Below are positions 1-53,766 of a stretch of DNA of 64,000 bases, piece after piece. The notes under the pieces are model-generated. The model saw only the letters and a program-made list of their open reading frames with translations. It made no database searches and was not told the DNA's origin. Numbering within the stretch: position 1 is the first letter of the stretch; the number at the start of each line of letters is the position of its first letter. This DNA comes from Candidatus Omnitrophota bacterium (GTDB lineage Bacteria > Omnitrophota > Omnitrophia > Omnitrophales > Aquincolibacteriaceae). The DNA lies in assembly GCA_022711115.1 (NCBI GenBank), contig JAKLFP010000001.1, forward strand, positions 389,183-453,182, given 5' to 3'. Both the position numbers and the translations under genes were made by a program.

Positions 1-1157
1 ATCGGCGTTTCCCCAGGGGAATCAACCATGAGACCCATAGCAGGTTTTATGCCGGCTTTCACAGTATTGTTTATTATTTCCTGCACGGACTTTAGCTCAA
101 AACCTTTATTCATTTTTTTAATCACGGATTGAGCGCCGCTTTCCACGCCATAGCTTAGGCAAGTACATCCGGATTTTTTTATTTTTTGCAACAACTCCAA
201 AGATAGATATTTTTCGGGACGGGCTTGTGAGAACCATTGAACATCCGCTTTTTCATTGATCAATAAATCACATGTTTCCGTCAATTGCTTTTCTGAAATC
301 GCCAGTGTGGAATCGGCTTTAAAGAATCTTGAAACGCCATAAGTTTTTTTCTGGTGTATAAATTCATGGCAAATGCTTTGCGGGGATCGCATTCTTGGTC
401 TCCCCCATAATTTGCTTTCATAACAAAAGGCGCATTGATGGGTACATCCTCTTAACCAGGAGATAGTAAGACTGATATAGTCGCGCCCCAGGGTATTTTT
501 ATAATCGTCAATAAAATCGGAAAAATCAGGATAGGGAAGAGAGTCTAGATCTTTTATAAATTCTCTGGGCCCGCCATCAATAATTTCTCCGTTTCTCATA
601 AAAAGCATTCCTGGACACGCCTGGATCTGGTCCGTTTTCTCCAAATTGTTCACTATATCCAGTAAAGTCATTTCTCCTTCACCGACAACGACGATGTCCA
701 CAAGTTGGGATTCTAGAGACGCCCTTGCACGCTCTTGATAACATTGGGGGCCACCGAATATGATGCGGATATTTTTGTTCTTTTCTTTGATTTTTTTAGA
801 AAGATAAAGTGCCATTTGCTCTGTGGAATACGAAATATAGAACCCTATGACTTTGGCTTCTGATTTCAGAATCTTATCTACCCATCCTTCTGTTAAATAA
901 TTCATCCTGGGGATATTTTTTTGAAGAAATTTGCTCTGATTTTCAAGAATACCACGATATTTTTCATACCATTGTTCTTGATCCTTTTTTTTAGCATCCA
1001 TATACGTTTGAATATTCAAATCCATCACAGAGACCTCTTTTCCGTTCTTTTTGAGAAAAGCCGAAAGAGAGGCTAACCCTAAAGGAAGAATACCTTCCGG
1101 TTGCTTGTGATTATTAAATAAATTAACCCATGGTGGGAAAATCAGTAGAGTTTTCAC
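1..1157 (-). CDS. B12-binding domain radical SAM protein (N-terminal part; gene continues beyond window start). Probable GTG start at 1157
   Basis: Manual minus-strand translation gives VKTLLIFPPWVNLFNNHKQPEGILPLGLASLSAFLKKNGKEVSVMD... (B12-binding domain N-terminus), later ...WLRGCTHQCAFC (CX3CX2C radical SAM cluster motif). Not in ORF track because there is no stop in the window. Confidence 0.6.
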   Translation of the reverse strand, partial: MKTLLIFPPWVNLFNNHKQPEGILPLGLASLSAFLKKNGKEVSVMDLNIQTYMDAKKKDQEQWYEKYRGILENQSKFLQKNIPRMNYLTEGWVDKILKSEAKVIGFYISYSTEQMALYLSKKIKEKNKNIRIIFGGPQCYQERARASLESQLVDIVVVGEGEMTLLDIVNNLEKTDQIQACPGMLFMRNGEIIDGGPREFIKDLDSLPYPDFSDFIDDYKNTLGRDYISLTISWLRGCTHQCAFCYESKLWGRPRMRSPQSICHEFIHQKKTYGVSRFFKADSTLAISEKQLTETCDLLINEKADVQWFSQARPEKYLSLELLQKIKKSGCTCLSYGVESGAQSVIKKMNKGFELKSVQEIINNTVKAGIKPAMGLMVDSPGETP

Positions 1158-1232
1158 CTTCTTGTTTTTCGCCTCGTTCTATCATGCCTGACACCCAAAA
1201 GAATCTCGTCAAAGCAATATGTGTTCAAATTA

Positions 1233-2324
1233 TCAAACCTCTCCATATTGACTCGTTTTTTCCAAGTTATAATGGTTCACGAGATATTCACTGAGCCTGT
1301 TGGCTATGATCTCATGCCCTTTTTTATTATAGTGAGGATCAATTTCAAAAGTAATCCCATGGCTTTTCCCTAAAACACCAGAAAGATCCAAATAATCTAT
1401 GTTTTCACGACTTAAAAACGCTTGCAACCACGGAATGGGGCCCTGATCAATATTGACAATTAAGAGTTGCATTTTTCTCTTTTGAAGTTGATTCTTTAAA
1501 TTTTTGAAATTCTTTTCAGCCTCTTCCATAACCATTTTCTTTTGCGCAGAAGTTCTTACCCTATACCCATGCTTACTGCCTTCGGACTCACCTTGTTTCA
1601 TAATATGATTCCAAAGTTCTCGCTCTTTTTTAGCCATAGAATGACGTATCAGAAGGATATTACAATTAACTTTCAGCCAGGAGTAAAGATAGCTAATTCC
1701 CAAAACATGGTTAAATTTTGAATATATGCTTCGCGTGAAAGAATTTATAAAATTATATGATACAATGTTTTCATCGACAATAAATGGTGAGTTTTCCATT
1801 GTTTTATAAATCGCTCTATCTAAATCAACCGCGATAATAGAACAAATAACCAGATCCGGTTTTAGAGAAAAACCATAATTTTCTAACCACAAGAACATCT
1901 GATGAATCCCATATCCGGGAACTCCGGCGTTAATGGAATAAATGCCTTTGACCTTTTTTTCCACCAAATCGGAAAATCGGCTTTCCACAGGAACTCCTAC
2001 TCCAAAAGTTTGGGAGTCGCCTAAAAATATTATTTTGAATTTATCTGTATCGGAAATTTCTTTTTCTCGCAGCCCTAAACTGTTAGTTGTGTAAATAATC
2101 TCATATTCGGAAGTGAAAGCATTTCTGCTGGCACTCGGTAATAATTTATATTGCAAGACGGGGTCTCGCTGATGTAAATGGGGGGTATGGTCAAAAGAGA
2201 AATTCCGATAAACCTCTATTTTTTTATGCGTTAAAAAGAAAAATATACGGGTACAGCCTTCGGCCAGAAGAAAAGTGCATAAAATATTAACGATACAAAC
2301 TAAAATTATTTTGGAGTATTTCAT
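1233..2324 (-). CDS. membrane-anchored SGNH/GDSL hydrolase-family protein (paralog 1 of 4)
   Basis: N-terminal TM helix; GDSQTFGVGV block (GDSx motif); C-terminal DPHYNKKGHEII block (DxxH). Paralogous to 13320-14522, 26102-27190 and 52885-53766. Confidence 0.6.
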   Translation of the reverse strand: MKYSKIILVCIVNILCTFLLAEGCTRIFFFLTHKKIEVYRNFSFDHTPHLHQRDPVLQYKLLPSASRNAFTSEYEIIYTTNSLGLREKEISDTDKFKIIFLGDSQTFGVGVPVESRFSDLVEKKVKGIYSINAGVPGYGIHQMFLWLENYGFSLKPDLVICSIIAVDLDRAIYKTMENSPFIVDENIVSYNFINSFTRSIYSKFNHVLGISYLYSWLKVNCNILLIRHSMAKKERELWNHIMKQGESEGSKHGYRVRTSAQKKMVMEEAEKNFKNLKNQLQKRKMQLLIVNIDQGPIPWLQAFLSRENIDYLDLSGVLGKSHGITFEIDPHYNKKGHEIIANRLSEYLVNHYNLEKTSQYGEV

Positions 2325-2413
2325 ATCATCTTTTTTGATTTAAAAATGCGAAACAGACCAAAAAAATAGAAAAATTTTAAGGAATTTTTTAAAAATTTAC
2401 CTTCTCTAGAAAT

Positions 2414-3603
2414 TTAAACGGGCGGGGTTTGTTCCCGTGTGGCTTCGATATAAAAAACGCCTATCTTTAGCCCTCCCCATAACGCTCCCAGAACATAGGC
2501 CCAGTTAAGAAGATAGCGAAGTAACGTATAGGCAATCCAGCGGCTTTTTTTTGAAGAAATCCAGCTTCGGAAAGTCAGTCTTCCACAAAAAAACAACCAT
2601 ACCAGAAACCACCCTAGAGCAAAGAACATGAGCGCATTATAAGCTTTAAAAAATAAGGAACATACTATGGCTAAAAATAAGAGATGAAGCATGTGGAATG
2701 GTGTCAAAAATATCAGCGCATAAAAAGGGAGGGGAAAACCCAAAAGAGTAGAAAATTGTACGGAAGACCATCCCATGCCTTTGTGCGTTGGCAAAAATAT
2801 CTTGATTGATTTGGAAGTGTGCTTTTTAAAAATATAAGGATGATAATAGCCATATCGAAACCATTGCTTGAGCAAGGCCCCTAGAGTTGTCCTGTGTTTA
2901 TGATGAATGAGAGCTTTCGGCTCAAAAAACAATTCCCATTTTGTTTTCGCCAACCGAATGCCCCATTCCACATCTTCTCCAGTTTGGTACTGCCCATCAA
3001 ATAATCCTACTTCATGAAGCGCTTCTCTCCGAATGGCTAAATTAGCCGTAGCAAATATGGGCTGGATCATTACAGAATCCGTTTTGGGTAGGTAGCCTCG
3101 CTCATAACCTTTGGTGAACAAAATATTCGTGATCATTGTGAATGATTTTCCTTTGAGCTGGATCCTACACGCATGACCGCGTCCGCAATGCAGTAATCCT
3201 CCACCAGCGTTCCTTTCACGCGACAGGCTAGGATTTCCCCTCCGACCATACCAATGGCTGGGTCTCTTAAAAAAGGTAACTCCAGATGATGCAACCATTT
3301 TTTATCCGCAACGCAGTCGTCATCTGTAAAAACGACAATATCCCCTGTCGCATTCAAGATACCAGTGTTTCTAGCTACAGGAATTCCTTTTTTATTTTCA
3401 AATATATATTTAATCGGAAGTTCTTCTTCGAAATGTTTGATGACTTCTCTTGTATGATCTGAGGAACCATTATCAACAACAACCACTTCGTCCGGGAACC
3501 GGACTTGTTGGACAAGAGATGACAGAGCGTCCTCTAGCATGGTCGCTCTATTAAAGGTCACTATGATAACTGAAATTTTTAATTTTTTTTGATCAATTGT
3601 CAT
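2414..3603 (-). pseudogene. family-2 glycosyltransferase with C-terminal TM domain, split by a frameshift into ORFs 3133..3603 and 2414..3298 (pseudogene or sequencing error)
   Basis: 3133..3603 encodes the GT2 N-terminus (ISVIIVTFNR...VVVVDNGSSDHT...FTDDDC). 2414..3298 continues the GT2 fold in another frame (FDGQYQTGEDVEWGIRLAKTKWELFFEPKALIHHKH) followed by TM helices. The two ORFs overlap by 166 nt. Confidence 0.5.
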
Positions 3604-3610
3604 ATTCCAC

Positions 3611-5284
3611 TCAACTATACAATATTTTCAATGTTTTTAAAGTGGATAAAAAATACGTTTCGGTGTCCGATGATTCACCATTGAGGTCTTTTCTATATTC
3701 TTCATGAAAGGTCTTCAACCAAGGCATTTCTGGAAAACTCGATTCAGGATACCCTTGGTAGACTTGGCTGCTGGACAATGGAACAAAAATTCTTTTCTTT
3801 GCCAGCGAGTCTTCAACAAGCTTTAATCGCAATGCTTGCCAGAAAAAAAGCTGAAATTGAATATTCGACAAACGGACAATCGTGGGCTCGGCGAGGATGT
3901 TCAGAATCATTCTCTTGTCTTCCTCCAGCGATCCTAAAAAGTCTTTCAAAAAATGATTCACTAAAATGCTCTGGCTTGTTTGGCATTGTAAAGGCCCTCC
4001 TAAAATTGACGCGTAAGGTGTGCTAACGTACAAAAAAATAAGCGGCATCAGGTTTGGTGAAAAAAGCGCTGACCGCATCAGCGGAGGTTCCTGTTTACTG
4101 AGCGATACCGCGCCGTACGAAGTGATACCATATAAGGACAGCCGTTGTGGAGCTTCATTCTTTGCCATGACTTTATTAAGTTCATCGATCATTTCGAAAG
4201 GAATATTGTTTTTACTTTTAATAAACAGGCCTATATTCGACTCATTGATGCAAACAAGATCTAGAGGGGATATAAAAATAGATTCAATATCCTCTTGATA
4301 TTTTTCATGAATAATCTTAACGATGGAGTCTAATTTTTTCTTATTTTCATGCGAAATAATTATATCGGCCGATTCAAAATCCAGGCGAAGGTTGTCAGGA
4401 CTCCACTCATTACCATCGTCGTAGTCCGCTATCGCGCTTAGAGCTTCGAGGGTTTTGGTGAGTGCCGTCATATAGAATTCATAACTACTGGAAACAAAAC
4501 AAGAATCATATGTTTGGAAGCCGTTTTTTTTAAACGCTAGCAACCTTTCGATATGAATTTTATTTCTTTCATCAAATTCCGGCTGAATGCCTTTTAGGGC
4601 GTCACCTCTGTCAAGCCAGTCCTCATGGTTCTTTGCCGACATAAGTGACCGGCTAACATCCGCATTGACTTTATAGCAGACATAATTTTGCATGCGCTTA
4701 TTCTTGTGGTTTTTTTTAAGGATAAAATGATCTATAAAAAGCGAATGGACAAAAGCGAGGTGGCCTAGGAGCAACTCTTTCCTTTGAGCCCCTTTTAATT
4801 CCGGGTATTGGCTAAAAATATCTTTACCATATAAAAGCTTGCCGTTTTTTTTAGTTTCATTAAAGAGTTTGAATTTGGCATAAAGATGCTTCAGGTAGAT
4901 ATCGCTTTTGTACCGATCGTGATAGATCTTTTCGATTTCCGCTTCAGTAAAGAGACCTCTTTCATCATATTTTATCAAAGGAATAAACCTGCAGAGGCTG
5001 CGGTATGTTTTTTCAACAATTGGTTTATCGTCCGGACCATTGCCAACAATGACAATGAGATCAATGTCGCTTAACCCGTAAAAGCATTCTCCTGTTACGA
5101 ATCCGCCGGTCAGGTAGATCGCTGCTACTTCCTTTTGTTTTTTAAGAATTGTGACGGTCATTCGCAACAAAAAACCGTAACACTGCTTGTAAACCCAAGT
5201 CCACGGCCAATAGTTCGTATGGATAATAAAATTTTGTATCAATCGCTTCAGCATAGAGAGGTTATTTATTTTGTGGCAACACAA
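3611..5284 (-). CDS. large nucleotidyltransferase-fold (Pol-beta/MNT superfamily) protein, unknown function
   Basis: LTGGFVTGECFYGLSDIDLIVIV matches hG[GS]x9-13DhDh of minimal nucleotidyltransferases; 557 aa; paralog at 7324-8871. Confidence 0.5.
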   Translation of the reverse strand: MCCHKINNLSMLKRLIQNFIIHTNYWPWTWVYKQCYGFLLRMTVTILKKQKEVAAIYLTGGFVTGECFYGLSDIDLIVIVGNGPDDKPIVEKTYRSLCRFIPLIKYDERGLFTEAEIEKIYHDRYKSDIYLKHLYAKFKLFNETKKNGKLLYGKDIFSQYPELKGAQRKELLLGHLAFVHSLFIDHFILKKNHKNKRMQNYVCYKVNADVSRSLMSAKNHEDWLDRGDALKGIQPEFDERNKIHIERLLAFKKNGFQTYDSCFVSSSYEFYMTALTKTLEALSAIADYDDGNEWSPDNLRLDFESADIIISHENKKKLDSIVKIIHEKYQEDIESIFISPLDLVCINESNIGLFIKSKNNIPFEMIDELNKVMAKNEAPQRLSLYGITSYGAVSLSKQEPPLMRSALFSPNLMPLIFLYVSTPYASILGGPLQCQTSQSILVNHFLKDFLGSLEEDKRMILNILAEPTIVRLSNIQFQLFFWQALRLKLVEDSLAKKRIFVPLSSSQVYQGYPESSFPEMPWLKTFHEEYRKDLNGESSDTETYFLSTLKTLKILYS

Positions 5285-6057
5285 ATAAAAAATTTACTTT
5301 CTTCTATATTGTTTTCCGAAATGACCAGGTCCTCGAGAGAAGCAACCTTAGGGAAAGGAAGGTTCATGATCTTTTTGGATAAATATTGACGAATGCTATT
5401 GGGGATAAGATTCTTGATCTTATAAGGATTTTCTCTCAAAAATATATTGTTTTTCGTAGCATCTTTGATGGCCCGGGGATAAGCCCCGATTTTTTCTTCG
5501 TAATGATCGGATCGCCTTTGTCCGTACATCTTTTGAATACAAAAATGACGGCCCACCAAAGCCTGAAATTCATCAAGACAATATTCTTTTACATGAAATT
5601 GGTGGGCGTCTCCTTTTAAAAGACCATACACCTTGTTGTTAGGCGTTGAAATCATAATCGTTCCTTGCGGGCATAAAACCCTTTTCATTTCCGCTAACAT
5701 GGAATCTGGATTAGTGATGTGTTCTATGGTTTCAAAAGAAACGATGGTGTGGAAAGCAGCTTCGGAAAATTTAAGACGGGCAGCATCCATAACTTGAAAC
5801 GATAGATTTTCGGAACGATAGTTTTTCTTACAGTAATCAATAGCCTCTTCCGATAGATCCACTCCAACAACACTAGCAGCGCTGTTTTTTGCCAGCAATT
5901 GAGACCCATACCCGCTGCCGCAGGCGACATCAAGGACATTTTTATTTTGCAAGAACTCTTTAGCGAAAAGATATCGCTGCATGTGCTCCCAATAAATTTC
6001 ATCCCTATTATTGGATAGGGTATATCGCTCAGAAGTTTTGTTCATCAATTTAACCAT
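5266..6057 (-). CDS. class I SAM-dependent methyltransferase
   Basis: VLDVACGSGYGSQLLA (motif I GxGxG) and downstream acidic motif. Confidence 0.7.
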   Translation of the reverse strand: MVKLMNKTSERYTLSNNRDEIYWEHMQRYLFAKEFLQNKNVLDVACGSGYGSQLLAKNSAASVVGVDLSEEAIDYCKKNYRSENLSFQVMDAARLKFSEAAFHTIVSFETIEHITNPDSMLAEMKRVLCPQGTIMISTPNNKVYGLLKGDAHQFHVKEYCLDEFQALVGRHFCIQKMYGQRRSDHYEEKIGAYPRAIKDATKNNIFLRENPYKIKNLIPNSIRQYLSKKIMNLPFPKVASLEDLVISENNIEESKFFICVATK

Positions 6058-6571
6058 GGATGTTTTTAAAAAAGCTAAATGAAAACCAAAATTAACTTAT
6101 GAATGGGACTTGGATTTGAATGCCTTTTTATAAGTTATACCGCTTTCCTTATTTGACCGTCAATCTCTTTGATTTTGATGTTCGTCCCCGGTCTTCCTTT
6201 GTTTTTGCTCTCTATTTCGATGTTGCGAAACTTCATAATGTAAAAATTCCGTGCTGCAAGTTAACACACTATAAGATGGAGAATAACAGTTTATTTTTTA
6301 TGTTTCTTTATAAAACAAAAAAACACCTCTAAATAACTTTATCAATTTCGGTGCTTTTCATTTCGCTTAGGATTTGCTAGATTGCTTTTTGGAAACAAAT
6401 CCATTTTGCTCTTAAAAAACTTCACAAAAAAAGATACACGATGAACCGAAAAAAATCCTTATTTAACCATGGCGGTCACGCATAAAAGGGGTTAATTTTT
6501 ATCGGCCTATTATTAAGAGGCTGGAAACTTTTTATCGCTATAAAACATTTGAGATATTCAACGCGATTTAC

Positions 6572-7294
6572 ATGGAAACCATTACCTCTTGTAATAGACG
6601 TTGTTATTATTGCCCAAATTCAAAATTCGACAGAGGGTTGATGAAGAATACGAAAAGAATGGACACGGGATTATTCCATAAGATCATTGATGAGCTAGCG
6701 GCGTTGGGGTGGAGCGGAGAAATTGCTCCGAATTTCTATGGTGAACCTTTATTAGATGATCGCATGGTGGAACTAGTGAAATATGCGCGCAACAAAATAA
6801 ACGGTTCTATGATCACTCTTTTTACAAATGGCGATTTTTTGACCGTAGAATTATACCTGAGATTGGTGAAAGCGGGCGTTAGTGCGTTTTGTATAACGGA
6901 ACATCCGGATGGAACCCCGCCGTTTATTAACGAAATATTAGAGTATCGAAAAGCACACGGAGACGATCATGTTAAGGTGGAGTATAAAAAATTAACCATG
7001 ATTTATAGCCGCGAGGGAGATGTCCCCATTGATGAGGTGGCTCCTAAGGATTGTGCTAACGCCGCATACAGAAAAATCGGCATTGATTGGGATGGGAACG
7101 TCGTGTTTTGCTGTAACGATTATTTCGTTACCGTTAAACTTGGTAATGTAAGAAAGGAAAGATTAATCGATGTGTGGAGAAAACCTTATTACAAAAAACT
7201 AAGGAAAAAACTCTACAGAGGCCAATCAAAGCTTGAGATATGCAGAAAGTGTAAATACGGAACAGTCGCAAAAAAAACACTCTCCCTACCTTAG
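6572..7294 (+). CDS. small radical SAM protein with SPASM/twitch-like C-terminal Cys cluster (paralog A)
   Basis: CNRRCYYC (CX3CX2C) at the N-terminus; C-terminal ...DGNVVFCCNDY...GNV...LIDVW...CRKCKYG. Paralogs at 29396-30229 and the C-terminus of 43065-44966. Confidence 0.65.
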   Translation: METITSCNRRCYYCPNSKFDRGLMKNTKRMDTGLFHKIIDELAALGWSGEIAPNFYGEPLLDDRMVELVKYARNKINGSMITLFTNGDFLTVELYLRLVKAGVSAFCITEHPDGTPPFINEILEYRKAHGDDHVKVEYKKLTMIYSREGDVPIDEVAPKDCANAAYRKIGIDWDGNVVFCCNDYFVTVKLGNVRKERLIDVWRKPYYKKLRKKLYRGQSKLEICRKCKYGTVAKKTLSLP

Positions 7295-7323
7295 GCTGCC
7301 ATTGCAAACATGGAATGTGATTG

Positions 7324-10858: not shown

Positions 10859-11009
10859 AGCTCTCTTTTCTGTAAAACGTTTTAATGAATTTTGGGGTTA
10901 TGCATTACAAAACAAATCTGAATCTCAGTCCAAACAAATCTTTCGAGAGTTAATTTTAAAGAATATTTAACAAATATCAATCGCCAGGGGATTTACGGCA
11001 AAAATCTAA

Positions 11010-11948: not shown

Positions 11949-11959
11949 GAACGTTTGCC

Positions 11960-43048: not shown

Positions 43049-43064
43049 CCGGGTTTTTCTTCCT

Positions 43065-45589: not shown

Positions 45590-45739
45590 CCGTTATTTTC
45601 CTAAAAATCTCTCTTTGTTTTAAACGGGGTTTTTGTTTCCTGCGCCACTCATGCGGTTTTATTGATCATCCATATTCGGATGTTTCCGCTATTTATCCGC
45701 ACTTTTTAAGAAACTAAAAACTGCGCTTTCTTTCCCGGG

Positions 45740-46678
45740 TTAAGAAGGTGGCAGTTTTTTGAAAAGATTTGTGATGCGACTTAATTTTATTTTAGCTTCG
45801 ATTCTCGAAGGAAAAAAAGAGTCTTTTTTTAGGTTAAATACAATCGCAAAAAGCTGTTTTGGTTTCCTGATAAAGCTCATTGCTTCGCACAAAACGATCC
45901 ATCCTTTCCGGATGCTGTTCTGCTTTGAATCCATGACCGCATTGGATATGCCTTCCCAGACGGCTCGTTTTTCAAACCAGTCCCTGCAAAGTCTTTCCGC
46001 AGGAATATGATGTTGAATTCTGATATCAGGGGCATAGATAATATCGTATCCTTGCTGTTTTAGCTGCGTCTGTGCAAAAGCCTCTTCCCCTGATAAAAGA
46101 TTATCCCCTTTCCTGCCTAAGTTCGGCAGAAAACCACCTATTTGCTCCAAAGATTCCTTTACAAAAGCCATGTTCCCACCAAAGAGCCTTGCTCGATCCA
46201 AAGACGCCGGTTCATCGCCATAGTCCAATACAGAAAGATATTTCAAAAGGTCATCTGTAATCCACGAAGCCCGTGTGCCGCCCCAAATAGGCTCTATTTT
46301 CCCACCGACAGCCCCGGCGTTTGCATGGGTTTCGAAGGCTTTTAGTATATTTGCAAGCCATAATTTATCCGCAATCGCATCATCATCCATAAAGGCCAGG
46401 TATTTTCCTGAGGCTTTTTTCACGCCGGCGTTTTTCGCGCGGGAAAGACCCTGGAGAGGCTCATAAAGATAGGTGATATGAACAGACTTTTTTTGAAAAT
46501 CCTGTACGATTTCTTTTGCTTTTCCAACAGGCCCGTTCTCAACCACAATAATTTCATACTGTTCTTCCGGCAACGATTGTCCGGTCAGGCTGAGAAGGGC
46601 CTCCGTTAAAAAAACATCTCTCCCGCAGGTGCAAACAACAACGCTGATGCGTGGTAAAAAATCATTTGTATTATTCAA
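45740..46678 (-). CDS. family-2 glycosyltransferase
   Basis: ISVVVCTCGR...YEIIVVENGP...FMDDDA. Confidence 0.7.
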   Translation of the reverse strand: MNNTNDFLPRISVVVCTCGRDVFLTEALLSLTGQSLPEEQYEIIVVENGPVGKAKEIVQDFQKKSVHITYLYEPLQGLSRAKNAGVKKASGKYLAFMDDDAIADKLWLANILKAFETHANAGAVGGKIEPIWGGTRASWITDDLLKYLSVLDYGDEPASLDRARLFGGNMAFVKESLEQIGGFLPNLGRKGDNLLSGEEAFAQTQLKQQGYDIIYAPDIRIQHHIPAERLCRDWFEKRAVWEGISNAVMDSKQNSIRKGWIVLCEAMSFIRKPKQLFAIVFNLKKDSFFPSRIEAKIKLSRITNLFKKLPPS

Positions 46679-46701
46679 TGATGTTTTCCAGAAGTTTAGG
46701 T

Positions 46702-47466
46702 TTATTTAATAGAGGTTGTTTGCTCTTTTTTAGAAAAAACGTAGTCGTTGACCACATCGTCCGGGTTGCCGCTTTTTTGTATCTGTCCTTTTTCGATCCA
46801 AAGGGCCCTATTGCAATACTTCCGAATGATTCCCAGCCTGTGGCTAGCCAGAATGACCGCTGAGCTTTTTCGAACAAATTCATTCAGTTTTTGCATCGCT
46901 TTTTCCTGGAAATCAATATCTCCGGAACTGCCAAGGGCCTCATCAATTAAAAGAATATCCGGATTATGCTTTTCAATGCTATGAATGGTCGTTGAGAAAG
47001 CCAGCCGGTTTATCATGCCCGAAGAAAACTGATAGACCTTGATATGGGTATACTCTTCGAGCCCAGAAAAAGCGATGATCTCATCGAGCTTCCTTCGAAG
47101 GTCCTGCGGGGACAGCCCTCTCATGGTTCCGACAAGCTGTATATTTTCCAGCATCGTCAGCTTGGGAACCAATCCTTGGGCATAGCCCGCCAAATAAACA
47201 GCCTTTCCGTTTATCTCTACAGAGCCCCCATCGGGAAGGTAGATCCCGCCTAAAATTCGCAGCAACGTTGTTTTTCCGGAACCATTGCGCCCGACGAGAC
47301 CGATGATCTCTCCGGAGCCGGCTTCGAACGACACTTCTTGAAGCGCCTGTCGCTCCTGTTTTTCCCCGGCCTTTAAAAGCCTTAAAAAAGCGGCTAAAGC
47401 TCCATCGTTATGGGCGATGTCCAGATCGAATTTCTTGGATAAATTACAGACTTTGATTCGAATCAA
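46702..47466 (-). CDS. ABC transporter ATP-binding protein, polysaccharide/teichoic-acid export type (Wzt/TagH-like)
   Basis: Walker A GLVGRNGSGKTTLL; signature FSSGMINRLAFS; Walker B ILLIDEAL. Confidence 0.75.
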   Translation of the reverse strand: MIRIKVCNLSKKFDLDIAHNDGALAAFLRLLKAGEKQERQALQEVSFEAGSGEIIGLVGRNGSGKTTLLRILGGIYLPDGGSVEINGKAVYLAGYAQGLVPKLTMLENIQLVGTMRGLSPQDLRRKLDEIIAFSGLEEYTHIKVYQFSSGMINRLAFSTTIHSIEKHNPDILLIDEALGSSGDIDFQEKAMQKLNEFVRKSSAVILASHRLGIIRKYCNRALWIEKGQIQKSGNPDDVVNDYVFSKKEQTTSIK

Positions 47467-47475
47467 GTTGTTCTC

Positions 47476-48252
47476 CTAAATCCTGCTTGCAAAATCTTTT
47501 TTCCTTATAGAAAAGGAAAAAAGACCTAAAAAAAACATTAAGACGCTCGACAGGACAACAAACACAGTCGTGCCAAGGTCAAGCGTTTGGCCGTTAATGA
47601 TGATGGCGCGGGCCGTTGAAACAAAATAAAAAATCGGGTTGAATAAATTGATTAGATAAAGGGCCCCTTCTTTGGGAGCAACATAAAAAATAGGCGTGGC
47701 AAACCATAACAAACGGCCCAAGACAGCCCAGACGTTTGAAAGATCCTTGATATAAACACCGATCGTCGCGAACAGAAAAGAGCATCCTAAAACAAACAAA
47801 GAAAAAAATAAAAAAAACAAAGGGTAAACCAAGAAACCGGTCAACGGCACCTTGAGACACAAAGCAAGAAATAAAAGAAGGACTATTTCACAGGCATGAG
47901 AAAAGGAGTATTGGATCAAGCCTGCGATCACAAAGGGTTCTTTGGCAATATCCATGGACTTGATGAAGCTTTCATTCGAGGTGATCGCTTTTATAGAAAA
48001 ATTCGTCGCCGCTAAAAAAAAATTGAAGACCACAAGGCCGACGAGAAGATAAAGAGGATAGTGAGGAATAATATTCTGATAAAGGGCGTGCCCAAATAGC
48101 AAAAGGATCGCAAAGGTTAAAAGCGGTTCCAGCAGATACCAAAAAATTCCGATAAAACTGCCCTCATTCCTCAGCTTAAACCTAACTTTAGCCAAGGACA
48201 GGCTGAGATAAAGAATATGTTTAATTTCATCTGGCGATATTTTCCTTATCAT
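47476..48252 (-). CDS. ABC-2 type transporter permease (Wzm/TagG-like)
   Basis: Six TM helices, 258 aa, immediately upstream of the ATPase. Confidence 0.65.
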   Translation of the reverse strand: MIRKISPDEIKHILYLSLSLAKVRFKLRNEGSFIGIFWYLLEPLLTFAILLLFGHALYQNIIPHYPLYLLVGLVVFNFFLAATNFSIKAITSNESFIKSMDIAKEPFVIAGLIQYSFSHACEIVLLLFLALCLKVPLTGFLVYPLFFLFFSLFVLGCSFLFATIGVYIKDLSNVWAVLGRLLWFATPIFYVAPKEGALYLINLFNPIFYFVSTARAIIINGQTLDLGTTVFVVLSSVLMFFLGLFSFSIRKKDFASRI

Positions 48253-48273
48253 TTTCCCTTTACCTTTTTCTAG

Positions 48274-49395
48274 TCACAAATTGGCCGTCGATAAATGCAT
48301 GGCCGTGCGTATCTTTTCAATAAAAACAGCTGTGGCAAAGCGCCCTGCGCGGGAAATGCACGTCTTCTTGTATTTTTCCGGTTCAACTTCGAGTTCCCGC
48401 CCTACTTGTAAAATAGCCTCTCGTAGCTTCTGTCCGTCGATGGAATCTATCAATATTCCTGTTTGTCCGTCGATAAGGGTTTCCCTGTACCCCCCCTCAT
48501 TTGGCGCAATGACCGGCTTGCCGGAAGCCATAGCCTCCACAACATTCATGCCGAAATCTTCATCCTGCGATGTTGCGATAAAACCTTTGCAGTGAGCGTA
48601 TAATTCTAGCAGCTCTTCTTTGGTCACCCAACTTCTTATCTCAACGTTTTCCGGTTTGTTTTTCATGCAATAGGCCGCATAGGCTTGAAAATGATCGGAT
48701 TGTTCATAGCTCCCCACAATGATCAGCCGTTCGCCCGGCAGCCTGGAAAATGCTTCCAGCTGCAAGTCGATTCTTTTGTGCTTGATAAGCCTGTTGACCG
48801 AAAGCCAGTAGCCGTTGGAAGGCTTGTAGTGAAAATTTTCTGCGTCAATGGGTGGATGGATAACGGTTGCTTTTTTTTGTAAATATTTTTCAACGCGTTT
48901 TTTTGTGTTTTCAGAATTACAAATTATTTGCTCTACGTCTCGAATATATCTCTTGTTCAAAGAACGGTTCAAAGAAACCCATAGATCAAAAAAAGGTCTC
49001 TTCCAAAAAACGACAAGATGGTTTCTTACATAAAGATGCAGGTCCCAGATTTCTCTGATCGGAGAGTGGACATACCAAAGATTGGGTTTGTTGTTGACCG
49101 CTCCGGACATCGCCCAGTCTCCAGCCATGATGAAGAAATCATACTTCCCTTTCAGGTTCAGCCTTCGAAACTTCCATAAGGCCATCTGCTGTCTCCATGG
49201 GGCGTTGACCGGGACTCTTCCAATAGAGAAAATCCTGGGCAACACATCCGAAAAACCCATTTGGTTGATTTTTTCTTTATCCATGTTTGTGGTGTAAAGG
49301 TCCGCGTTCAGTTCCCTGGCAAGCGTTAGAGACACGATCTCTGCACCGCCGATGTTGTCGATAAAATTATGAAAGATTGCGATTTTGTTTTTCAT
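48274..49395 (-). CDS. family-4 (GT-B) glycosyltransferase
   Basis: EDFGMNVVEAMASGKPVIAPNEGG (EX7E motif). Confidence 0.7.
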   Translation of the reverse strand: MKNKIAIFHNFIDNIGGAEIVSLTLARELNADLYTTNMDKEKINQMGFSDVLPRIFSIGRVPVNAPWRQQMALWKFRRLNLKGKYDFFIMAGDWAMSGAVNNKPNLWYVHSPIREIWDLHLYVRNHLVVFWKRPFFDLWVSLNRSLNKRYIRDVEQIICNSENTKKRVEKYLQKKATVIHPPIDAENFHYKPSNGYWLSVNRLIKHKRIDLQLEAFSRLPGERLIIVGSYEQSDHFQAYAAYCMKNKPENVEIRSWVTKEELLELYAHCKGFIATSQDEDFGMNVVEAMASGKPVIAPNEGGYRETLIDGQTGILIDSIDGQKLREAILQVGRELEVEPEKYKKTCISRAGRFATAVFIEKIRTAMHLSTANL

Positions 49396-49398
49396 TTT

Positions 49399-50661
49399 TT
49401 AGCGCCAAGAGGCAAAGACGTCCACGATTTCCTGAGCCGCAAGGGGCGCAACATCTTCTTTCACAAGGCTTGCAGGATAAAGCGTTTTTAGCCACTCCAT
49501 TTCTTTTTGCGTTCCAGGATGTTTGTTGTAATCCCAAACGAGTGTTTTAGGTAACAACCCCATTTCGGCAGCGCAGTGAAGGGGCCCCTTGTTTGTCTGG
49601 TAACTTAACCCGTCGATCGTTAGCGCCTTGCATCCGCGGGTAATAGCTTCATAAGCCGTACTGGAACCGTCCGTCACAATAAATTCATGTTCATCATACA
49701 GGTGAACCAGATCCTCCAACGTGTTTTGTCCTTTCATGTAGTGGCATTGTGTTTTTTGTAATGTTTTAATAAATTCGGACACAGGCTGTTCTGTTGTTTT
49801 GAGCGGCGGCGCAAAAGTAAGAGGATGAAGAATGATTTTGATTTCAAAGTCTTTCGCTAGGCCTTTAACGACTTCGTCAAAGCGGTTGGTGTCCTGGCGG
49901 TTGGAGGCAATACGCCAGTTACAAGAGACGAGCATGGCGCCTAACTTTCTCTTTGTTTTTCTGGCACTATTAAAAATACAGTTGAGTTTAGGCTCAAAAT
50001 GCGTGAAGCGGAGAGGCATGCCATCTTTAAGAATTTGATCACGAGCGAGCAAAGCGTTTTCGCTTAAACTCTCTGTTTTTAAGATGAGATCCCAAGAATA
50101 TTTTGGAATCATGAGTTTAAAATTTTGTTTTTTGACCCAAAGATAAGACTCAATAATTGCTTCTAGCCCAAAACCAGCGCTGTGCTGAAGACGGACAAGA
50201 ACGCGGTGCCAGCGTGTCAGAAAGGGGTTTCTAAAATCTCCCATCCCGCCAAGGACAAGATCCATTGTGTTTGGATCATGAAAACTGAATGTTGAAACCG
50301 TGGGACAATCCTCTACTTCTTTAAAGCGGCGCCAAATGAAACGGTCGTCATTTTTTGTAATTATTTTCAGATATTCCGCCCAATAGTTTCGGTCTTTTTG
50401 ATGAAGAATCGTTATCTTTTGTTCTTTCTTTTTTTTGATTCGTCTTATGACGACAGGTAGAAAATAATTTTTTGCTACTGTTTTTTTAAACAGGTAGGAC
50501 AAGCGGTAGAGTTTTTCAAAAGCTTTTTTAAAAAATCTTGAAAAAAACCTCTTTTTTTTTCCATTTCCAGAAAGGACGGCTTTACAAAGAGGCTCTTTGT
50601 TCATTTCTTTCGATTTCCTGGATGGCTTCCCGTACCTGCGCAATGGTTTGCTGTTTATCAA
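49399..50661 (-). CDS. TagB/TagF-like CDP-glycerol/polyol-phosphate transferase family protein (tentative)
   Basis: KIILHPL...EFIVTDGSSTAYEAITRGCKALTI resembles the Glyphos_transf C-terminal block (HP...LITDYSS...KPII). Start uncertain; the first ~27 codons of the ORF as drawn overlap the upstream gene. Confidence 0.4.
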   Translation of the reverse strand: MINSKPLRRYGKPSRKSKEMNKEPLCKAVLSGNGKKKRFFSRFFKKAFEKLYRLSYLFKKTVAKNYFLPVVIRRIKKKKEQKITILHQKDRNYWAEYLKIITKNDDRFIWRRFKEVEDCPTVSTFSFHDPNTMDLVLGGMGDFRNPFLTRWHRVLVRLQHSAGFGLEAIIESYLWVKKQNFKLMIPKYSWDLILKTESLSENALLARDQILKDGMPLRFTHFEPKLNCIFNSARKTKRKLGAMLVSCNWRIASNRQDTNRFDEVVKGLAKDFEIKIILHPLTFAPPLKTTEQPVSEFIKTLQKTQCHYMKGQNTLEDLVHLYDEHEFIVTDGSSTAYEAITRGCKALTIDGLSYQTNKGPLHCAAEMGLLPKTLVWDYNKHPGTQKEMEWLKTLYPASLVKEDVAPLAAQEIVDVFASWR

Positions 50662-51559
50662 AATTGGAGTTATAAAATATGCTCTTTGCTGAACGGGAGC
50701 TTTTTGCTTTTTTTATAAGCTCTGTATCAAGCCGCATGCCTCGTTTCAATACCGCGCTCTCCGCAAGGACGTTGTGAAAAAGAAGTGGTGCGTTCGTTTG
50801 GCTTGCCCTTCTCCACCGATTCAACCATGGAATGCGCCCCTGATCCATAATAAATATGACGGGTTTGCCCCGAAAGAAAAAGGGGGCGGCTACAGAACTA
50901 AGACCGCCTGCGCAACAGTGACAATACGCGAAAGCCTCCAGCAGTGCTTCCGGCGTCTTTATGAAAGTCAGGTTGTCCTTTTTTTCACATATTTCTATCA
51001 ACCTCTTTAGAGTTTTCTCCTCATTTTCCGGATGAGTGGTCAGATAGCCGTGAACATCATCGCCAAGATTTTCTAACGCATGGATGAGCACCTCCAGGTC
51101 ATCTTTTTTGGGGGATAACTCACAATAAAAAAGAACCGCTCCGGGCCGAACGGGCCTTTCGGGGATCTCAAAAAGCAATGTATAGCCGATTCGCCGAAGT
51201 TTGTTTTTTTTGATGCCGTACCTTAAATAGTCCCATTCGTGCGTCCATCCTGTTAAAAACACCAAATCAATATATTGATTAATAATAGCAACCCGCGGCT
51301 TGTTCTGATCAGCCCATTTTTTAAAGCTAACACCATGAAGTGTAAAGACTTGCCGCCCTTTCAGCTTGGGGTGCAGATTAAAATAAATGTCATTGAAAAA
51401 CCATATCACATCGGACCCGTCTTGTTGAAAGACTTCGTCCGGAAAGTTTTTTTCATCAATCCCGCAGGGATGCGCCACATAGTCGCCTCCCAGGAGCGAA
51501 TGAAAGAAGCGTTGGTGAATCTTTTGATGCGGAAGTCCTACAAAAAATTTATATTTCAT
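50582..51559 (-). CDS. TagB/TagF-like polyol-phosphate transferase family protein (tentative)
   Basis: AVLFYCE...YLTTHPEN...LLEAFAYCHCCAGGLSSVAAPFFFRGKPVIF pattern. Confidence 0.4.
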   Translation of the reverse strand: MKYKFFVGLPHQKIHQRFFHSLLGGDYVAHPCGIDEKNFPDEVFQQDGSDVIWFFNDIYFNLHPKLKGRQVFTLHGVSFKKWADQNKPRVAIINQYIDLVFLTGWTHEWDYLRYGIKKNKLRRIGYTLLFEIPERPVRPGAVLFYCELSPKKDDLEVLIHALENLGDDVHGYLTTHPENEEKTLKRLIEICEKKDNLTFIKTPEALLEAFAYCHCCAGGLSSVAAPFFFRGKPVIFIMDQGRIPWLNRWRRASQTNAPLLFHNVLAESAVLKRGMRLDTELIKKAKSSRSAKSIFYNSNFDKQQTIAQVREAIQEIERNEQRASL

Positions 51560-51562
51560 TTT

Positions 51563-52462
51563 TTATAATTTTTTTAAACGCTTTTTGCGGGGGGATTTTT
51601 CGTCGGTTTTTGAGAATTGAAAGCTTCCGGCTATTCGAGAAAAGGCATCTTGCAAACAGTATTTTATCCAGACAAAAACATCCTTTTGCAGCTCAAGAAA
51701 GATAGCTGTTGCGTAGTTGTTCCAACCGAATTTTCCAAGACGACGAAGAAGAAAAAGCGTCTTAGTTTTGATTCTCAGTTGTTGGGCTCGCTTTATACAG
51801 CCACGCTTGTGAAGAGATCTTTCGGACTTGGAATGCTCTCTATATTTTAAGAGCGGTTCGGAGAATTTATAAATCAAATTTTTATCGCTGCAAAAATGAA
51901 GCCACATCTCATAGTCTTCTCCAAAGTTAGGCAGCTTTTCGTTAAAGCGATATCTCTTTAAAATCTTCGTCCGGACCATAGTGGTCGGATTACAGATACA
52001 ACAGACGCGTTTCATGGTTTTTGTGATTTCTTTGTAAGAAATGCTGTTTTTTTCCGCCTCCCAAACTCTGGACAAAGTCCTGCCTTCAGCGTCAATTAAT
52101 ATCGCTGTGGAGGCGACGGCGCCGATGTCAGGGTTTTGATCTAAATAGGCTACCTGTTTTTCGATCCTTTCTGGAAAGGCTATGTCATCGGAGTTCATGA
52201 TCGCAAGGCATTCCCCTCGGGCCAAGGCGAGCCCTTCATTCATTCTTTGCGCAATGCCTTTATTTTGGCTATGGCTTATAAGACGAATACGGGCGTCGGA
52301 AAAAGAGCGGAGAATGTTGTCCGTTTGATCTTCCGAGCCATCGTCAATGATTAAAAATTCGAAATTCTCAAAGGTTTGATTGAGAACGCTCTCCACGGCT
52401 TCGCGGACGTATTTTTCTCGGTTGTAAACAGGCATTAAAACAGTAACCTTGGGATTTGGCAT
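51563..52462 (-). CDS. family-2 glycosyltransferase
   Basis: VTVLMPVYNREKYVREAVESVLNQT...FLIIDDGSEDQT...MNSDD. Confidence 0.7.
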   Translation of the reverse strand: MPNPKVTVLMPVYNREKYVREAVESVLNQTFENFEFLIIDDGSEDQTDNILRSFSDARIRLISHSQNKGIAQRMNEGLALARGECLAIMNSDDIAFPERIEKQVAYLDQNPDIGAVASTAILIDAEGRTLSRVWEAEKNSISYKEITKTMKRVCCICNPTTMVRTKILKRYRFNEKLPNFGEDYEMWLHFCSDKNLIYKFSEPLLKYREHSKSERSLHKRGCIKRAQQLRIKTKTLFLLRRLGKFGWNNYATAIFLELQKDVFVWIKYCLQDAFSRIAGSFQFSKTDEKSPRKKRLKKL

Positions 52463-52645
52463 TAGTTCTATAATAATTTGGTTGTCAATTTAGTGGAACT
52501 ACTTGTTAAAAGTTTGACTGCGCCGGCTTTATATAAATTGAAGATCTTGGCACGCCTTTTTCTTTTTCGGTCGAATCGCTTTACGCGCCAAAACCGTCGC
52601 TGCGCTAAAGCCAAAAAAGCGCCGTCAGTTTATCCCGCTGTTTCC

Positions 52646-53766
52646 TTAAATATTCGATAGTCTTTTTGTTGGGGTTGTGCCATTTGATACGCTTTCGCTT
52701 AACTGAAATTCATACTTCCTCGACAGCTCTTTTAATATCTCTTTGGCAATGATTTGATTCCCAAGATCATTGTGGTGCCCTTTTTGATAAATAAGTGTTG
52801 AGGACATGTCGTTTTTTTGAAGGAAAGCATTCAGCGCAACCTTGGTGTCCATAAAATCGATTTCCAGTTCTTCAAGCTTGTCCTTTAAAAAAGTCTCCCG
52901 CCAGGTGACCTGATGGAGATCGCGTCGCGCATAAAATAAAACGACAAGAAGAGGGTGTTGCTGTTGAAAACATATTTTTTTATACGTTCAAGAATTTTGG
53001 AGTTAATGGCTTTTTTTTGTTCTTCTTTGGAAAAGCCTCTTTCTAGATCAGGGATCTGGGATAAAATACCTCTCCAAAAAATCCGGAAGGCATAGCTTTT
53101 GATCTGAGGCGGATGGCTTTTGACATACTGGTCCGGATCCTGATTGAGAGGAGTTCCCTGAAGGGTTAAAGTGTTTTTTGAGATAAGAAAGTAAGGCTTC
53201 GCACCGCCTCGAATAGTCAGAATGGAACGGTCGAGATCATCGGATACAAGAATGCCGATGATAATGAAAGGAGCGTGAACTTTTTTATGAGTCATTTCGA
53301 ACATAAGAAGGATCTGGTCCAATCCGTACCCTCCGCAGCCCAGGTCGACTGCTTCCACCCCTGCAAGACGATCCGTCATAAGGTTGCAGATTTTGTTTTC
53401 TTCTCGCCCTGTTCCGCGCACAAAGGAATCCCCGTAAAAAAGGATCTTTTTTTTTGGCGAGGAAAGACGGGCGAGGCTAAGTTTTCGCAACCCTAAAGGA
53501 TTCTCAAAGGTTGTTGTGGCTTGACTCCACCCGAGCAGGGGATGGCGTCTTTTGTCATAAATATCCTTTTCTTTACCCAGAAGACGCCGCAGTTTCCAGT
53601 AGTCATCTTCCGTAGAAGAATTTGCATAGAGTTTGGGATGCCTGAGCTGCGGAATAGGAAGATATGGTGAAAACAAACTAAGACGGATGATTATTTCCAA
53701 AGTCAGCAGGGTCGCAAAGATGCTGCTCCCAATCAAAACCAACCGAATTTTCATTTCTTTTTTCAT
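52646..53766 (-). pseudogene. membrane-anchored SGNH/GDSL hydrolase paralog 4, disrupted: N-terminal ORF 52885..53766 and C-terminal fragment 52646..52852
   Basis: FYGDSFVRGTG in the 293-aa ORF. The conserved C-terminal His block (GHHNDLGNQIIAKEI) lies in the separate 68-aa ORF in another frame. Confidence 0.45.

Follow-up and report, generated by a model that had tools for sequence, protein, structure and literature searches.

The window analysed here, a stretch of 64,000 nucleotides from a Candidatus Omnitrophota bacterium, carries a dense glycan-biosynthesis region with an atypical enzyme mix beside dnaA, as the original prediction had it. The core of one of its gene clusters (cluster A) appears, from gene order and sequence identity, to be a rare cassette that is conserved across loci of Omnitrophota, Planctomycetales and unbinned metagenomes. 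Open reading frames (ORFs) of at least 150 amino acids (aa), and several smaller ones, were scanned against Pfam and in part against NCBIfam. The 8.8 kb past the window start (the left flank) were read from contig DAOOUA010000002.1 (GCA_035390585.1), which equals ENA ERZ761563 NODE_20 and is denoted L016; this contig matches the window exactly at both ends. The window proteins are also found on contigs of several other metagenome or sequencing-run samples.

The glycan genes fall into three modules. Cluster A occupies positions 1–16,508 and continues for at least 8.8 kb beyond the window start, module B (~6.5 kb) comprises 26,102–27,190 and 29,396–32,652, and cluster C covers 38,769–53,766 with its own Wzm/Wzt. 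Clusters A and C are separated by ~22 kb (16.6–38.7 kb) in which module B is embedded but which otherwise hold mainly surface-protein genes and two tRNAs (tRNA-Arg and tRNA-Ser). A second Wzm/Wzt pair is found in the left flank of cluster A, outside the window. The region is two separate Wzm/Wzt-dependent assembly–export clusters with a small accessory module, and not one super-locus; the single 54-kb locus of the original prediction is not borne out, given the mostly non-glycan stretch, the two export systems and the three modules. The gene inventory drawn up for the same 54 kb is largely real by Pfam and NCBIfam, except for two ‘TagB/F-like’ genes that have neither profile nor PDB support.

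At the window start, cluster A encodes a B12-binding radical S-adenosylmethionine (rSAM) enzyme of 477 aa in full (3–1157; this and all genes below are on the minus strand unless marked +). Its C-terminus lies beyond the window and its full gene is present in L016; it matches B12-binding and Radical_SAM in Pfam and has the CX3CX2C motif at residue 238. Next come a membrane-anchored SGNH/GDSL protein (1233–2324) and a family 2 glycosyltransferase (GT2) that is split into two ORFs, a C-terminal half of 240 aa (2414–3136, Glyco_trans_2_3) and an N-terminal half of 156 aa with a DDD motif (3133–3603, Glycos_transf_2, E 6e-29). The signature gene of the cassette encodes NTase1, a 547-aa nucleotidyltransferase (NTase) resembling aminoglycoside nucleotidyltransferases (ANTs) (3611–5254, NTP_transf_2). 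It is followed by a class I SAM-dependent methyltransferase (MT1; 5266–6057, Methyltransf_31/11/25), a compact rSAM/SPASM protein of 240 aa (6572–7294, +; Radical_SAM and SPASM, CX3CX2C at residue 7, five C-terminal Cys) and the 515-aa NTase2 (7324–8871, NTP_transf_2, E 1e-4). Three GT2 enzymes (8865–9857, 9812–10858 and 11010–11948; Glycos_transf_2, E 1e-24 to 1e-30), the first two being paralogues with 45% identity, an O-methyltransferase of the Methyltransf_2 type (11960–12964, Pfam E 3.8e-26), a second membrane-anchored SGNH protein (13320–14522) and a multi-transmembrane (multi-TM) protein with C-terminal tetratricopeptide repeats (TPRs; 14721–16508, +) complete the cluster. A 70-aa ORF at 6120–6332 has no Pfam match and no tblastn match in the other loci.

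Besides the rest of the B12-rSAM gene, the left flank contains the second pair of ABC-2 permease and ATPase, a GT2 whose C-terminus has TM helices and a GmhB-like phosphatase. It also encodes a P-loop protein of 341 aa, for which the precomputed Pfam match is ScmC (‘weak’) and the NCBIfam match is HprK-related kinase B (E 6e-5); its conserved pattern HRIHALG...PSGGGKTTL...SEDSPL, read from the sequence, resembles HprK. The flavoprotein of the flank (523 aa) exceeds the cut-off of one family only, the uncharacterised PRK07208.1-2, and matches UDP-galactopyranose mutase weakly. In another locus (L011 10802–13108), a fusion protein of 768 aa combines an orthologue of the flavoprotein (54% identity) with a SAM methyltransferase domain, and its gene adjoins those for a PMT_2 protein, a B12-rSAM enzyme and a MurJ-like flippase. 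Just past the flavoprotein of cluster A, at L016 18324–20090, lies the gene of a 588-aa protein with at least seven hydrophobic segments and no family match, which may act as a membrane enzyme of ligase-, polymerase- or GT-C-like type.

Gene contexts were taken from the encoding contigs, from the GTDB species genomes, a scan of which yielded two Omnitrophota metagenome-assembled genomes (MAGs) and one Planctomycetales MAG, and from metagenomes scanned with the C-half of the split GT2 as the seed. Synteny and identities come from tblastn comparisons of all proteins of the window and the flank with the recovered loci. The cassette consists of the B12-rSAM enzyme, an rSAM/SPASM protein, a methyltransferase, the NTase, the split GT2, the HprK-like protein, Wzm/Wzt, a GT2 and the PRK07208 flavoprotein, and is syntenic in L012, L014, L018, L019, L021, L022, L024, L027, L030 and L031. 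NTase1 (34–46% identity) is encoded immediately or closely upstream of the GT2 halves in every sufficiently long locus. The N-half of the split GT2 is 62–72% identical in all related loci, and the C-half is 44–69% identical over its full or near-full length in nine loci, with two further partial matches at contig ends. The B12-rSAM enzyme (53–56% identical orthologues in L012, L014, L021, L022 and L027), the HprK-like protein (29–42%) and a Wzm/Wzt pair stand alongside wherever the locus sequence suffices, and at least one rSAM/SPASM gene is also present. Frequent companions are the flank GT2 (51–59%), the flavoprotein (30–54%), the class I methyltransferase (55–59%; in L012 and L018 it lies directly upstream of the NTase), a GT4 and an SGNH or SGNH–TPR protein. 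Conserved co-occurrence in relatives thus holds for the core of cluster A, in at least 10 other loci, but the whole 54-kb set is not conserved as a unit; outside the core, a few cluster C genes recur, in one locus (L012).

ABC-transporter-dependent glycan assembly with periplasmic decoration is already known as a kind, while the cassette is new to the searchable literature, in which no description of it was found. In a recent preprint on Omnitrophota, variable polysaccharide cassettes receive only a general mention (bioRxiv 10.64898/2026.06.07.730766).

Word-indexed homologue searches are insensitive here (18, 5 and 7 matches) and return four non-self homologues of NTase1 with 37–41% identity; the size of the NTase family was established by an exhaustive profile search. 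Among 1.84 billion representatives of 50%-identity clusters, the NTase1 profile gives 511 matches at E ≤ 1e-3, of which 185 reach E ≤ 1e-10 and 57 reach E ≤ 1e-30; most have ~500–570 aa. The family is modest in size and its closest members are nameless or carry the generic name ‘nucleotidyltransferase’. The catalytic motif of NTase1 is YGLSDID, with S62, D63 and D65 unchanged across 50 members of the family; NTase2 carries GTSDMD. NTase1 has the domain order of ANT(3'')(9)-like enzymes, an NTase domain followed by a helical substrate-binding domain, and its N-terminal half looks like an active NTase of the kind whose targets are hydroxyls of sugars or cyclitols. The secondary structure of a model suggests that the C-terminal half forms a second alpha/beta-plus-helical unit; a first AlphaFold2 model, built from 5 sequences, had a mean confidence score (pLDDT) of 59 and was not used. 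NTase2 is a remote paralogue of NTase1, detected by hmmsearch with the NTase1-family profile (E 3e-11) and by BLAST matches to family representatives.

The two genes of the split GT2 are translationally coupled: they overlap in ATGA, as read directly in the window, and the same 4-nt overlap is present in the gene calls of L012 (11643–12820), L014 (13763–14952), L021 (9354–10573) and L022 (10558–11675). The halves align consecutively to the full-length GT2 at 8865–9857. In the C-half, the GED and QW(Y/F)xYG motifs are retained, with TM helices behind them, and its sequence is reminiscent of synthase-type GT2 enzymes. A frameshifted pseudogene at 2414–3603 was considered and rejected: since the two-ORF split recurs in all related loci, with the 4-nt overlap in every gene-called one, the split GT2 is a stable two-subunit enzyme.

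All four rSAM enzymes that had been predicted are present with an intact CX3CX2C motif, and three of them match SPASM in Pfam; in the GT2–rSAM fusion of cluster C this part lies at 43065–43950. The three SPASM proteins have five C-terminal Cys each, arranged as C-x15-18-CC-x40-43-CxxC, compared with the seven-Cys motif for two auxiliary clusters, and may therefore hold one auxiliary cluster in a Twitch-like form. BtrN, reportedly a Twitch enzyme that acts on an aminocyclitol, would be a precedent. The compact proteins encoded at 6572–7294 and 29396–30229 are paralogues. Truncation was considered for the 240-aa protein and rejected, as compact homologues of ~280 aa occur in L011 and L019.

The best PDB matches of the window permease are proteins that export glycans, among them Aquifex Wzm (6oih/6m96) and a mycobacterial O-antigen/lipopolysaccharide-type permease (9qfx), and the best matches of the flank permease include Aquifex Wzm and TarG (6jbh); top matches are at E 5e-10 to 8e-7. 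The Wzt ATPases are short (254 aa in the window, 247 aa in the flank), with no room for a C-terminal carbohydrate-binding domain. The Wzm/Wzt exporter of the original prediction is confirmed as a pair, though it is not the only one, the second lying left of the window start. Pfam also bears out the predicted set of about ten GT2 enzymes and one GT4: ten GT2 enzymes are encoded in the window, one split into two ORFs, one fused to an rSAM domain and one weak in its match. No Polysacc_synt, MurJ or Wzy-type domain, and so no Wzx/Wzy, was detected by Pfam in the window ORFs. Pfam likewise detects no classical nucleoside diphosphate (NDP)-sugar enzyme (NTP_transferase, short-chain epimerase/dehydratase or DegT) in the window. 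This lack is unusual beside 11 glycosyltransferases (GTs) and leaves room for the rSAM enzymes, the kinase and the NTases to supply or tailor sugars.

Cluster C opens with a Dpm1/AglJ-like GT2, resembling polyprenyl-phosphate sugar synthases (38769–39902, +). It contains GT2_TM_C and four C-terminal TM helices, and its matches to TIGR04182 (E 4.5e-41), a dolichyl-phosphate-hexose transferase family (E 1e-29) and PpgS are all below cut-off; together the AglJ-like matches and the four helices uphold the Dpm1-like synthase originally predicted. Convergent with this gene, and 5 nt away, is that of a multi-TM protein with TPRs (39908–41716), followed by a 436–444-aa soluble protein (41807–43141) with no Pfam, NCBIfam or PDB match, in which a WFDCDILL motif, read from the sequence, resembles the DxD of GT-A enzymes. 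An ExoM-like GT2 is fused to an rSAM/SPASM domain by Pfam (43065–44966; the called gene has 631 aa, the ORF 633), and the fusion gene is called identically in four independent assemblies. The fusion was seen in this species only, by the insensitive word-indexed search; its rSAM half is 54% identical to a protein of L011 and 44% to one of L019. Such a fusion speaks for a shared substrate of glycosyl transfer and radical chemistry. With a 10-nt overlap there follows a sulfotransferase of the 3'-phosphoadenosine-5'-phosphosulfate (PAPS) type (44957–45589; Sulfotransfer_4, E 1.9e-34, above cut-off) with a GLAKTGT motif, like the 5'-phosphosulfate-binding loop, near its N-terminus. Beyond a GT2 (45740–46678, Pfam) lie the genes of the 254-aa Wzt-like ATPase (46702–47466, ABC_tran), the Wzm-like ABC-2 permease (47476–48252, ABC2_membrane) and a GT4 (48274–49395; Glycos_transf_1, E 5e-28) that has a 64% identical orthologue in L012. 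Two soluble proteins of 401 and 325 aa (49399–50661 and 50582–51559), a GT2 (51563–52462; Glycos_transf_2, E 3e-36) and a membrane-anchored SGNH protein (52885–53766) end the cluster. The sulfotransferase, the two methyltransferases and the two large NTP_transf_2 proteins of the predicted inventory are confirmed by Pfam. The two soluble proteins correspond to the supposed TagB/F-like polyol-phosphate transferases, for which the protein at 41807–43141 was a third candidate. The identity is not sustained: for all three, searches of Pfam (E ≤ 1), of NCBIfam (E ≤ 0.1) and of the PDB (E ≤ 1) returned no match. The 401- and 325-aa proteins carry only GT-B-like motifs read from the sequence, DGSSTAYEA..G and GGLSSVAAP.

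The multi-TM proteins at 14721–16508 and 39908–41716 (595/602 aa) are paralogues with 36% identity and have ~9–11 hydrophobic segments, ~11 in the former. Both show an invariant PFxFDD motif after TM1. The hydrophobic segments and the TPR tails agree with the TMTC/PMT-like GT-C proteins of the original prediction, but no profile backs the family name: the matches are to TPR families only, none is to PMT, PMT_2 or DUF1736, and a PDB profile search with the TM domain gave no match at E ≤ 10.

The four SGNH paralogues, present in all three modules, have individually weak assignments (Pfam E 9e-6 to 0.097). Paralogue 1 matches Lipase_GDSL_2 at E 4.7e-5 and the NCBIfam LA_2490 family at E 2e-9; paralogue 2 matches Lipase_GDSL_2 at E 9e-6 and LA_2490/LA_2486 at E ~1e-10; paralogue 3, in module B (26102–27190), matches Lipase_GDSL_2 at E 1.3e-3 and is linked by BLAST to the other three; paralogue 4 has a Pfam match at E 0.097 and a BLAST match to paralogue 3 at E 8e-11. 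The predicted family of four is upheld by these mutual BLAST links, by the N-terminal membrane anchor that all share and by the matches of two to the Leptospira SGNH families LA_2490/LA_2486.

With moderate confidence, we read the region as a glycan island with two Wzm/Wzt-dependent pathways, unusual anaerobic tailoring and an accessory module. The mechanism proposed is drawn from domain families, topology and synteny. The soluble and membrane-associated GT2 and GT4 enzymes would build a polyprenol-linked glycan on the cytoplasmic face, where the SAM methyltransferases and the PAPS sulfotransferase would tailor it. The B12-rSAM enzyme would act on the glycan as well, most likely as a C-methylase, and the Twitch/SPASM rSAM enzymes may perform oxidation or epimerisation-type chemistry, which would suit an anaerobe. 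The ANT-like NTase, with the HprK-like P-loop protein, could serve to attach a phospho- or nucleotidyl-linked group, or else to activate a residue. Wzm/Wzt would export the polymer. In the periplasm, the TPR-tailed GT-C-like enzymes would glycosylate the polymer (or a protein) with a donor from the Dpm1-like synthase, and the four anchored SGNH proteins would acylate or deacylate the product. To call that product a heavily decorated, undescribed polymer or protein glycan, as originally predicted, seems reasonable from the genes. A more far-reaching proposal, which we put forward tentatively and regard as possible rather than probable, is that the cassette would give anaerobes a new way to make and export a surface glycan. 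The rSAM enzymes would then stand in for NDP-sugar tailoring, for instance by C-methylation and by oxidation or epimerisation of sugars, and the NTase would act directly in assembly, where it would place a phospho- or nucleotidyl-linked cap or activate a residue.

Several points weigh against reading the region as such an island. The substrates and the chemistry of all the enzymes are predictions, and the putative GT-C assignment comes from a loop motif and the topology. For the HprK-like protein the assignment is weak: the TIGR04355 match scores 22 bits against a cut-off of 200, and PDB matches are at the level of the P-loop only. The best NCBIfam matches of the rSAM enzymes are peptide and cofactor maturases, far below cut-off. 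No priming phosphoglycosyltransferase (WecA/WbaP), ligase or outer-membrane export gene was seen in the window or the 8.8-kb flank; these may be encoded at another site, as they commonly are. Finally, sequence alone does not tell one product of A, B and C from several.

The Wzm/Wzt O-antigen pathways (E. coli O8/O9a, Aquifex aeolicus Wzm–Wzt, TarGH) share with the region an ABC-2 permease with its ATPase, many GT2 and GT4 enzymes and the absence of Wzx/Wzy, and the permeases match 6oih/6m96, 6jbh and 9qfx best. WbdD caps the chain in a Wzm/Wzt pathway, and the methyltransferase and kinase-like genes here could cap it in the same manner. Unlike the described pathways, the region has a short Wzt and no WecA/WbaP, WaaL or NDP-sugar genes in view; it adds three kinds of rSAM enzyme, ANT-like NTases, the HprK-like protein and a two-gene GT2. 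Decoration by a GT-C enzyme and a polyprenyl-phosphate-sugar synthase is known from Gtr, ArnC/ArnT and streptococcal GacI/GacL, and for proteins from PMT/Ppm1 and TMTC. The common features are the GT2 with C-terminal TM helices and DPM/AglJ-like matches beside a multi-TM protein, which here has PFxFDD after TM1 and a periplasm-facing tail; the differences are the lack of a PMT, PMT_2, DUF1736 or PDB match and of any GtrA-type flippase seen here. The resemblance to TagB/TagF is limited to the short GT-B-like C-terminal motifs of the 401- and 325-aa proteins, which differ from TagB/TagF in having no Glyphos_transf (PF04464) match at E ≤ 1.

Aminoglycoside O-nucleotidyltransferases nucleotidylate a sugar or cyclitol hydroxyl. 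The G-S-D-x-D motif of ANT(3'')(9)/AadA and AAD(9) is present here, but sequence identity to these enzymes is only 12–15%; NTase1 is twice as long and stands in a biosynthetic cassette, not in a resistance context. Parts of the proposed mechanism have precedents: the O-methyl-phosphoramidate decoration of the C. jejuni capsule is reportedly made by a kinase, cytidylyltransferase and methyltransferase route, and Fom3 is said to need a cytidylylated substrate. In the biosynthesis of pseudomycoidin, an HprK-family kinase first phosphorylates the substrate, to which hexoses are then added by an enzyme of NTase fold that was modelled on ANT(2'') (PMC6993621). The region shares with this PsmK/PsmN pair a P-loop HprK-like protein and an ANT-like NTase encoded with an ABC exporter, a likeness in the kinds of gene; it differs in having no precursor, cyclase or RiPP recognition element (RRE; RiPP, a peptide made by ribosomes and modified after translation), a Wzm-type exporter and weak HprK similarity. 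C. jejuni HS:19 has a trio of sulfotransferase, GT and anSME-like rSAM genes beside its capsule locus, with function predicted only (PMC8743553). Its counterpart here is the sulfotransferase with the GT2–rSAM fusion (43065–45589); PAPS-synthesis genes are adjacent there and none is seen here, and GT and rSAM are fused here only.

The modules are linked by paralogous and orthologous genes. In module B, the genes encode a compact rSAM/SPASM protein of 277 aa (29396–30229, Pfam), a weak GT-A/GT2 (30368–31318, Pfam E 3e-7), an ExoM-like GT2 (31324–32247) and a glutaredoxin-like protein whose hydrophobic N-terminus ends in Cys, as in lipoproteins (32287–32652, Pfam). The ExoM-like GT2 shares 38% identity with its counterpart, the GT2 half of the fusion protein at 43065–44966, and one gene lies between this unfused paralogue and the compact rSAM/SPASM gene. 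In L012, cluster C orthologues stand in one array with cluster A orthologues (GT4 64%, Wzm/Wzt 46–49%, Dpm1-like GT2 49%), the Wzm/Wzt orthologues of the cluster C pair coming after the split GT2. The closest relatives of the rSAM half of the fusion are encoded beside the NTase and split GT2 (L019) and near the flavoprotein and B12-rSAM gene (L011). Shared paralogues and the L012 array indicate that the modules draw on one toolkit, by which the ‘super-locus’ idea is partly rescued.

These links bear on the rival that fares best, although we judge it unlikely, namely that the region is an ordinary patchwork of unrelated neighbouring surface-polysaccharide and protein-glycosylation loci in a variable island, in which the rSAM, NTase and kinase genes serve housekeeping or defence. 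The two independent Wzm/Wzt pairs and the ~20 kb of unrelated genes and tRNAs between the modules would fit it, as would base composition, the GC of the glycan genes (0.38–0.44) being below that of gyrA/gyrB (0.47–0.49). Across the 64 kb, GC is lowest, at 0.37, in dnaA/dnaN and cluster A and highest, at 0.57, in the gene of a giant secreted protein. The tRNA-Ser(GCT) gene at 38296–38389 has an exact 23-nt copy of its 5' end at 38582–38604 (minus strand), 215 nt upstream at the border between an autotransporter gene and cluster C, where ARAGORN and Rfam call no tRNA; this duplicated fragment may be a recombination or integration scar. Variable polysaccharide cassettes have also been reported in Omnitrophota genomes (bioRxiv 10.64898/2026.06.07.730766). 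A patchwork is nevertheless hard to square with the tight synteny of rSAM, NTase, HprK-like and split GT2 genes with Wzm/Wzt in at least 10 divergent loci, with the physical fusion of a GT2 to an rSAM domain, with the paralogues that the modules share (GT-C/TPR proteins with 36% identity, the GT2 half of the fusion with 38%, SGNH and compact rSAM proteins) or with the mixed array of cluster A and C orthologues in L012.

Among the genes between the modules are those of large secreted proteins. Non-glycan genes at 16649–25458 (Pfam; GC 0.49–0.57) encode a bPH_2 membrane protein, ankyrin and TPR_12 proteins, a lipoprotein-like protein without a known family and a secreted protein of 1,849 aa (19909–25458). 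The last has one PASTA match, a middle part that looks largely helical, a Gly-rich tail and a poly-Q stretch encoded by CAG/CAA repeats at 20269–20383; the GC of its gene (~0.55–0.57) is far above that of its neighbours (0.38–0.47). Pseudopilin genes of TadG-like and TadE-like type (Tad/Tad_C) lie at 27449–28886, the TadE-like ORF of 142 aa (28458–28886) being labelled by eye. The longest TadG ORF, with a TTG start, overlaps the TadE-like ORF, and the true start of TadG is therefore probably an internal Met near 28453. A PATR autotransporter of 1,546 aa (33172–37812; Autotransporter, E 9e-52, and PATR) has a passenger with 16% Thr, 15% Gly and 8% Ser and glycan modules on both sides, and is a candidate O-glycosylation target.

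O-glycosylation of these neighbours (the autotransporter, the 1,849-aa protein and the Tad pilins) by the GT-C/TPR enzymes in the style of PMT/TMTC is a further rival, to which we give a rather low probability. TPRs are protein-binding modules, the GT-C-like/Dpm1-like pair resembles PMT/Ppm1, the genes of large secreted proteins are flanked by glycan modules and the passenger is rich in Thr (16%) and Ser (8%). Wzm/Wzt and more than 10 cytoplasmic GTs point instead to a polymer on a lipid carrier; Pfam detects no PMT, PMT_2 or oligosaccharyltransferase (PglB/PglL/Wzy_C) domain in the window, and the other cassette loci are without adjacent giant proteins. Protein O-glycosylation is possible for the GT-C/TPR branch but leaves the Wzm/Wzt-centred cassette unexplained.

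A RiPP-like pathway, in which the rSAM enzymes, HprK-like kinase, NTase and ABC transporter mature and export a glycosylated ribosomal peptide comparable to phosphorylated and glycosylated lasso peptides, is very unlikely. The B12-rSAM enzyme does have RiPP C-methyltransferases as its best sub-threshold NCBIfam matches, ScmE/ScmF-type and other maturase families are among the matches of the SPASM proteins, the precomputed Pfam match of the P-loop protein is ScmC, and the PsmK/PsmN pair is a precedent. However, no conserved precursor-like ORF was found in a search of small ORFs that was not exhaustive, the 70-aa ORF being the sole candidate, and Pfam detects no PqqD/RRE, lasso cyclase, protease or LanB/C-type domain in the window or flank. 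The permeases match Wzm/TarG and not peptide exporters, and the periplasmic SGNH and GT-C-like partners and the 11 GTs fit carbohydrate. Equally improbable is lipid or glycolipid tailoring, with the rSAM enzymes, the CrtI/HpnE-like flavoprotein, the methyltransferases and the membrane GT2 enzymes modifying a polyprenoid, hopanoid-like or ether lipid head group that is flipped by the ABC-2 transporter: the B12-rSAM enzyme matches ladderane-lipid, HpnJ and HpnR families, the flavoprotein matches CrtD and HpnE weakly and its L011 orthologue is fused to a methyltransferase, but all those family matches are far below cut-off, the flavoprotein passes only PRK07208.1-2 beside its weak UDP-galactopyranose mutase match, and the window holds no isoprenoid or fatty-acid synthesis genes.

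On the far side of cluster C lies the origin flank (53950–63429), with genes for tRNA-Ser, serS, gyrA, gyrB, a dciA-like gene, dnaN and dnaA, those from dnaA to serS at 54.1–63.4 kb; rnpA, yidC, gidA and parAB follow beyond dnaA on the contig. The minus strand holds nearly all genes of the window and the GC skew of the plus strand is negative throughout, which fits leftward replication from an origin near dnaA. DnaA-box-like sites exceed their counts in shuffled sequences across the whole window and form only a small group in the dnaN–dnaA spacer. The position ‘next to the origin’ given in the original prediction is reasonable, and consistent with gene context and skew. An Rfam scan of the window finds three tRNAs only, with no cobalamin or SAM riboswitch. 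Promoter and terminator scans were not above shuffled expectation, and no operon structure is claimed for this reason.

Omnitrophota are uncultured, very small and probably host-dependent, and we know of no account of their surface chemistry. About 40 kb beside the putative origin are given over to glycan genes in this genome. On the reading of the region as a glycan island, a compact cassette of ~10 genes that recurs across phyla would couple Wzm/Wzt to enzyme types not known from polysaccharide assembly, and it offers a candidate function for an NTase family of roughly 185–500 50%-identity clusters (E 1e-10 to 1e-3). If the NTase acts directly in polysaccharide assembly, as tentatively proposed above, this would be the first such role of a pol-beta-fold nucleotidyltransferase in a Wzm/Wzt pathway. 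The cassette can be cloned directly and is a concrete target in the search for new anaerobic sugar-tailoring chemistry. Should it prove to cap or decorate a glycan, the range of chain modifications known from ABC-transporter-dependent pathways would grow.

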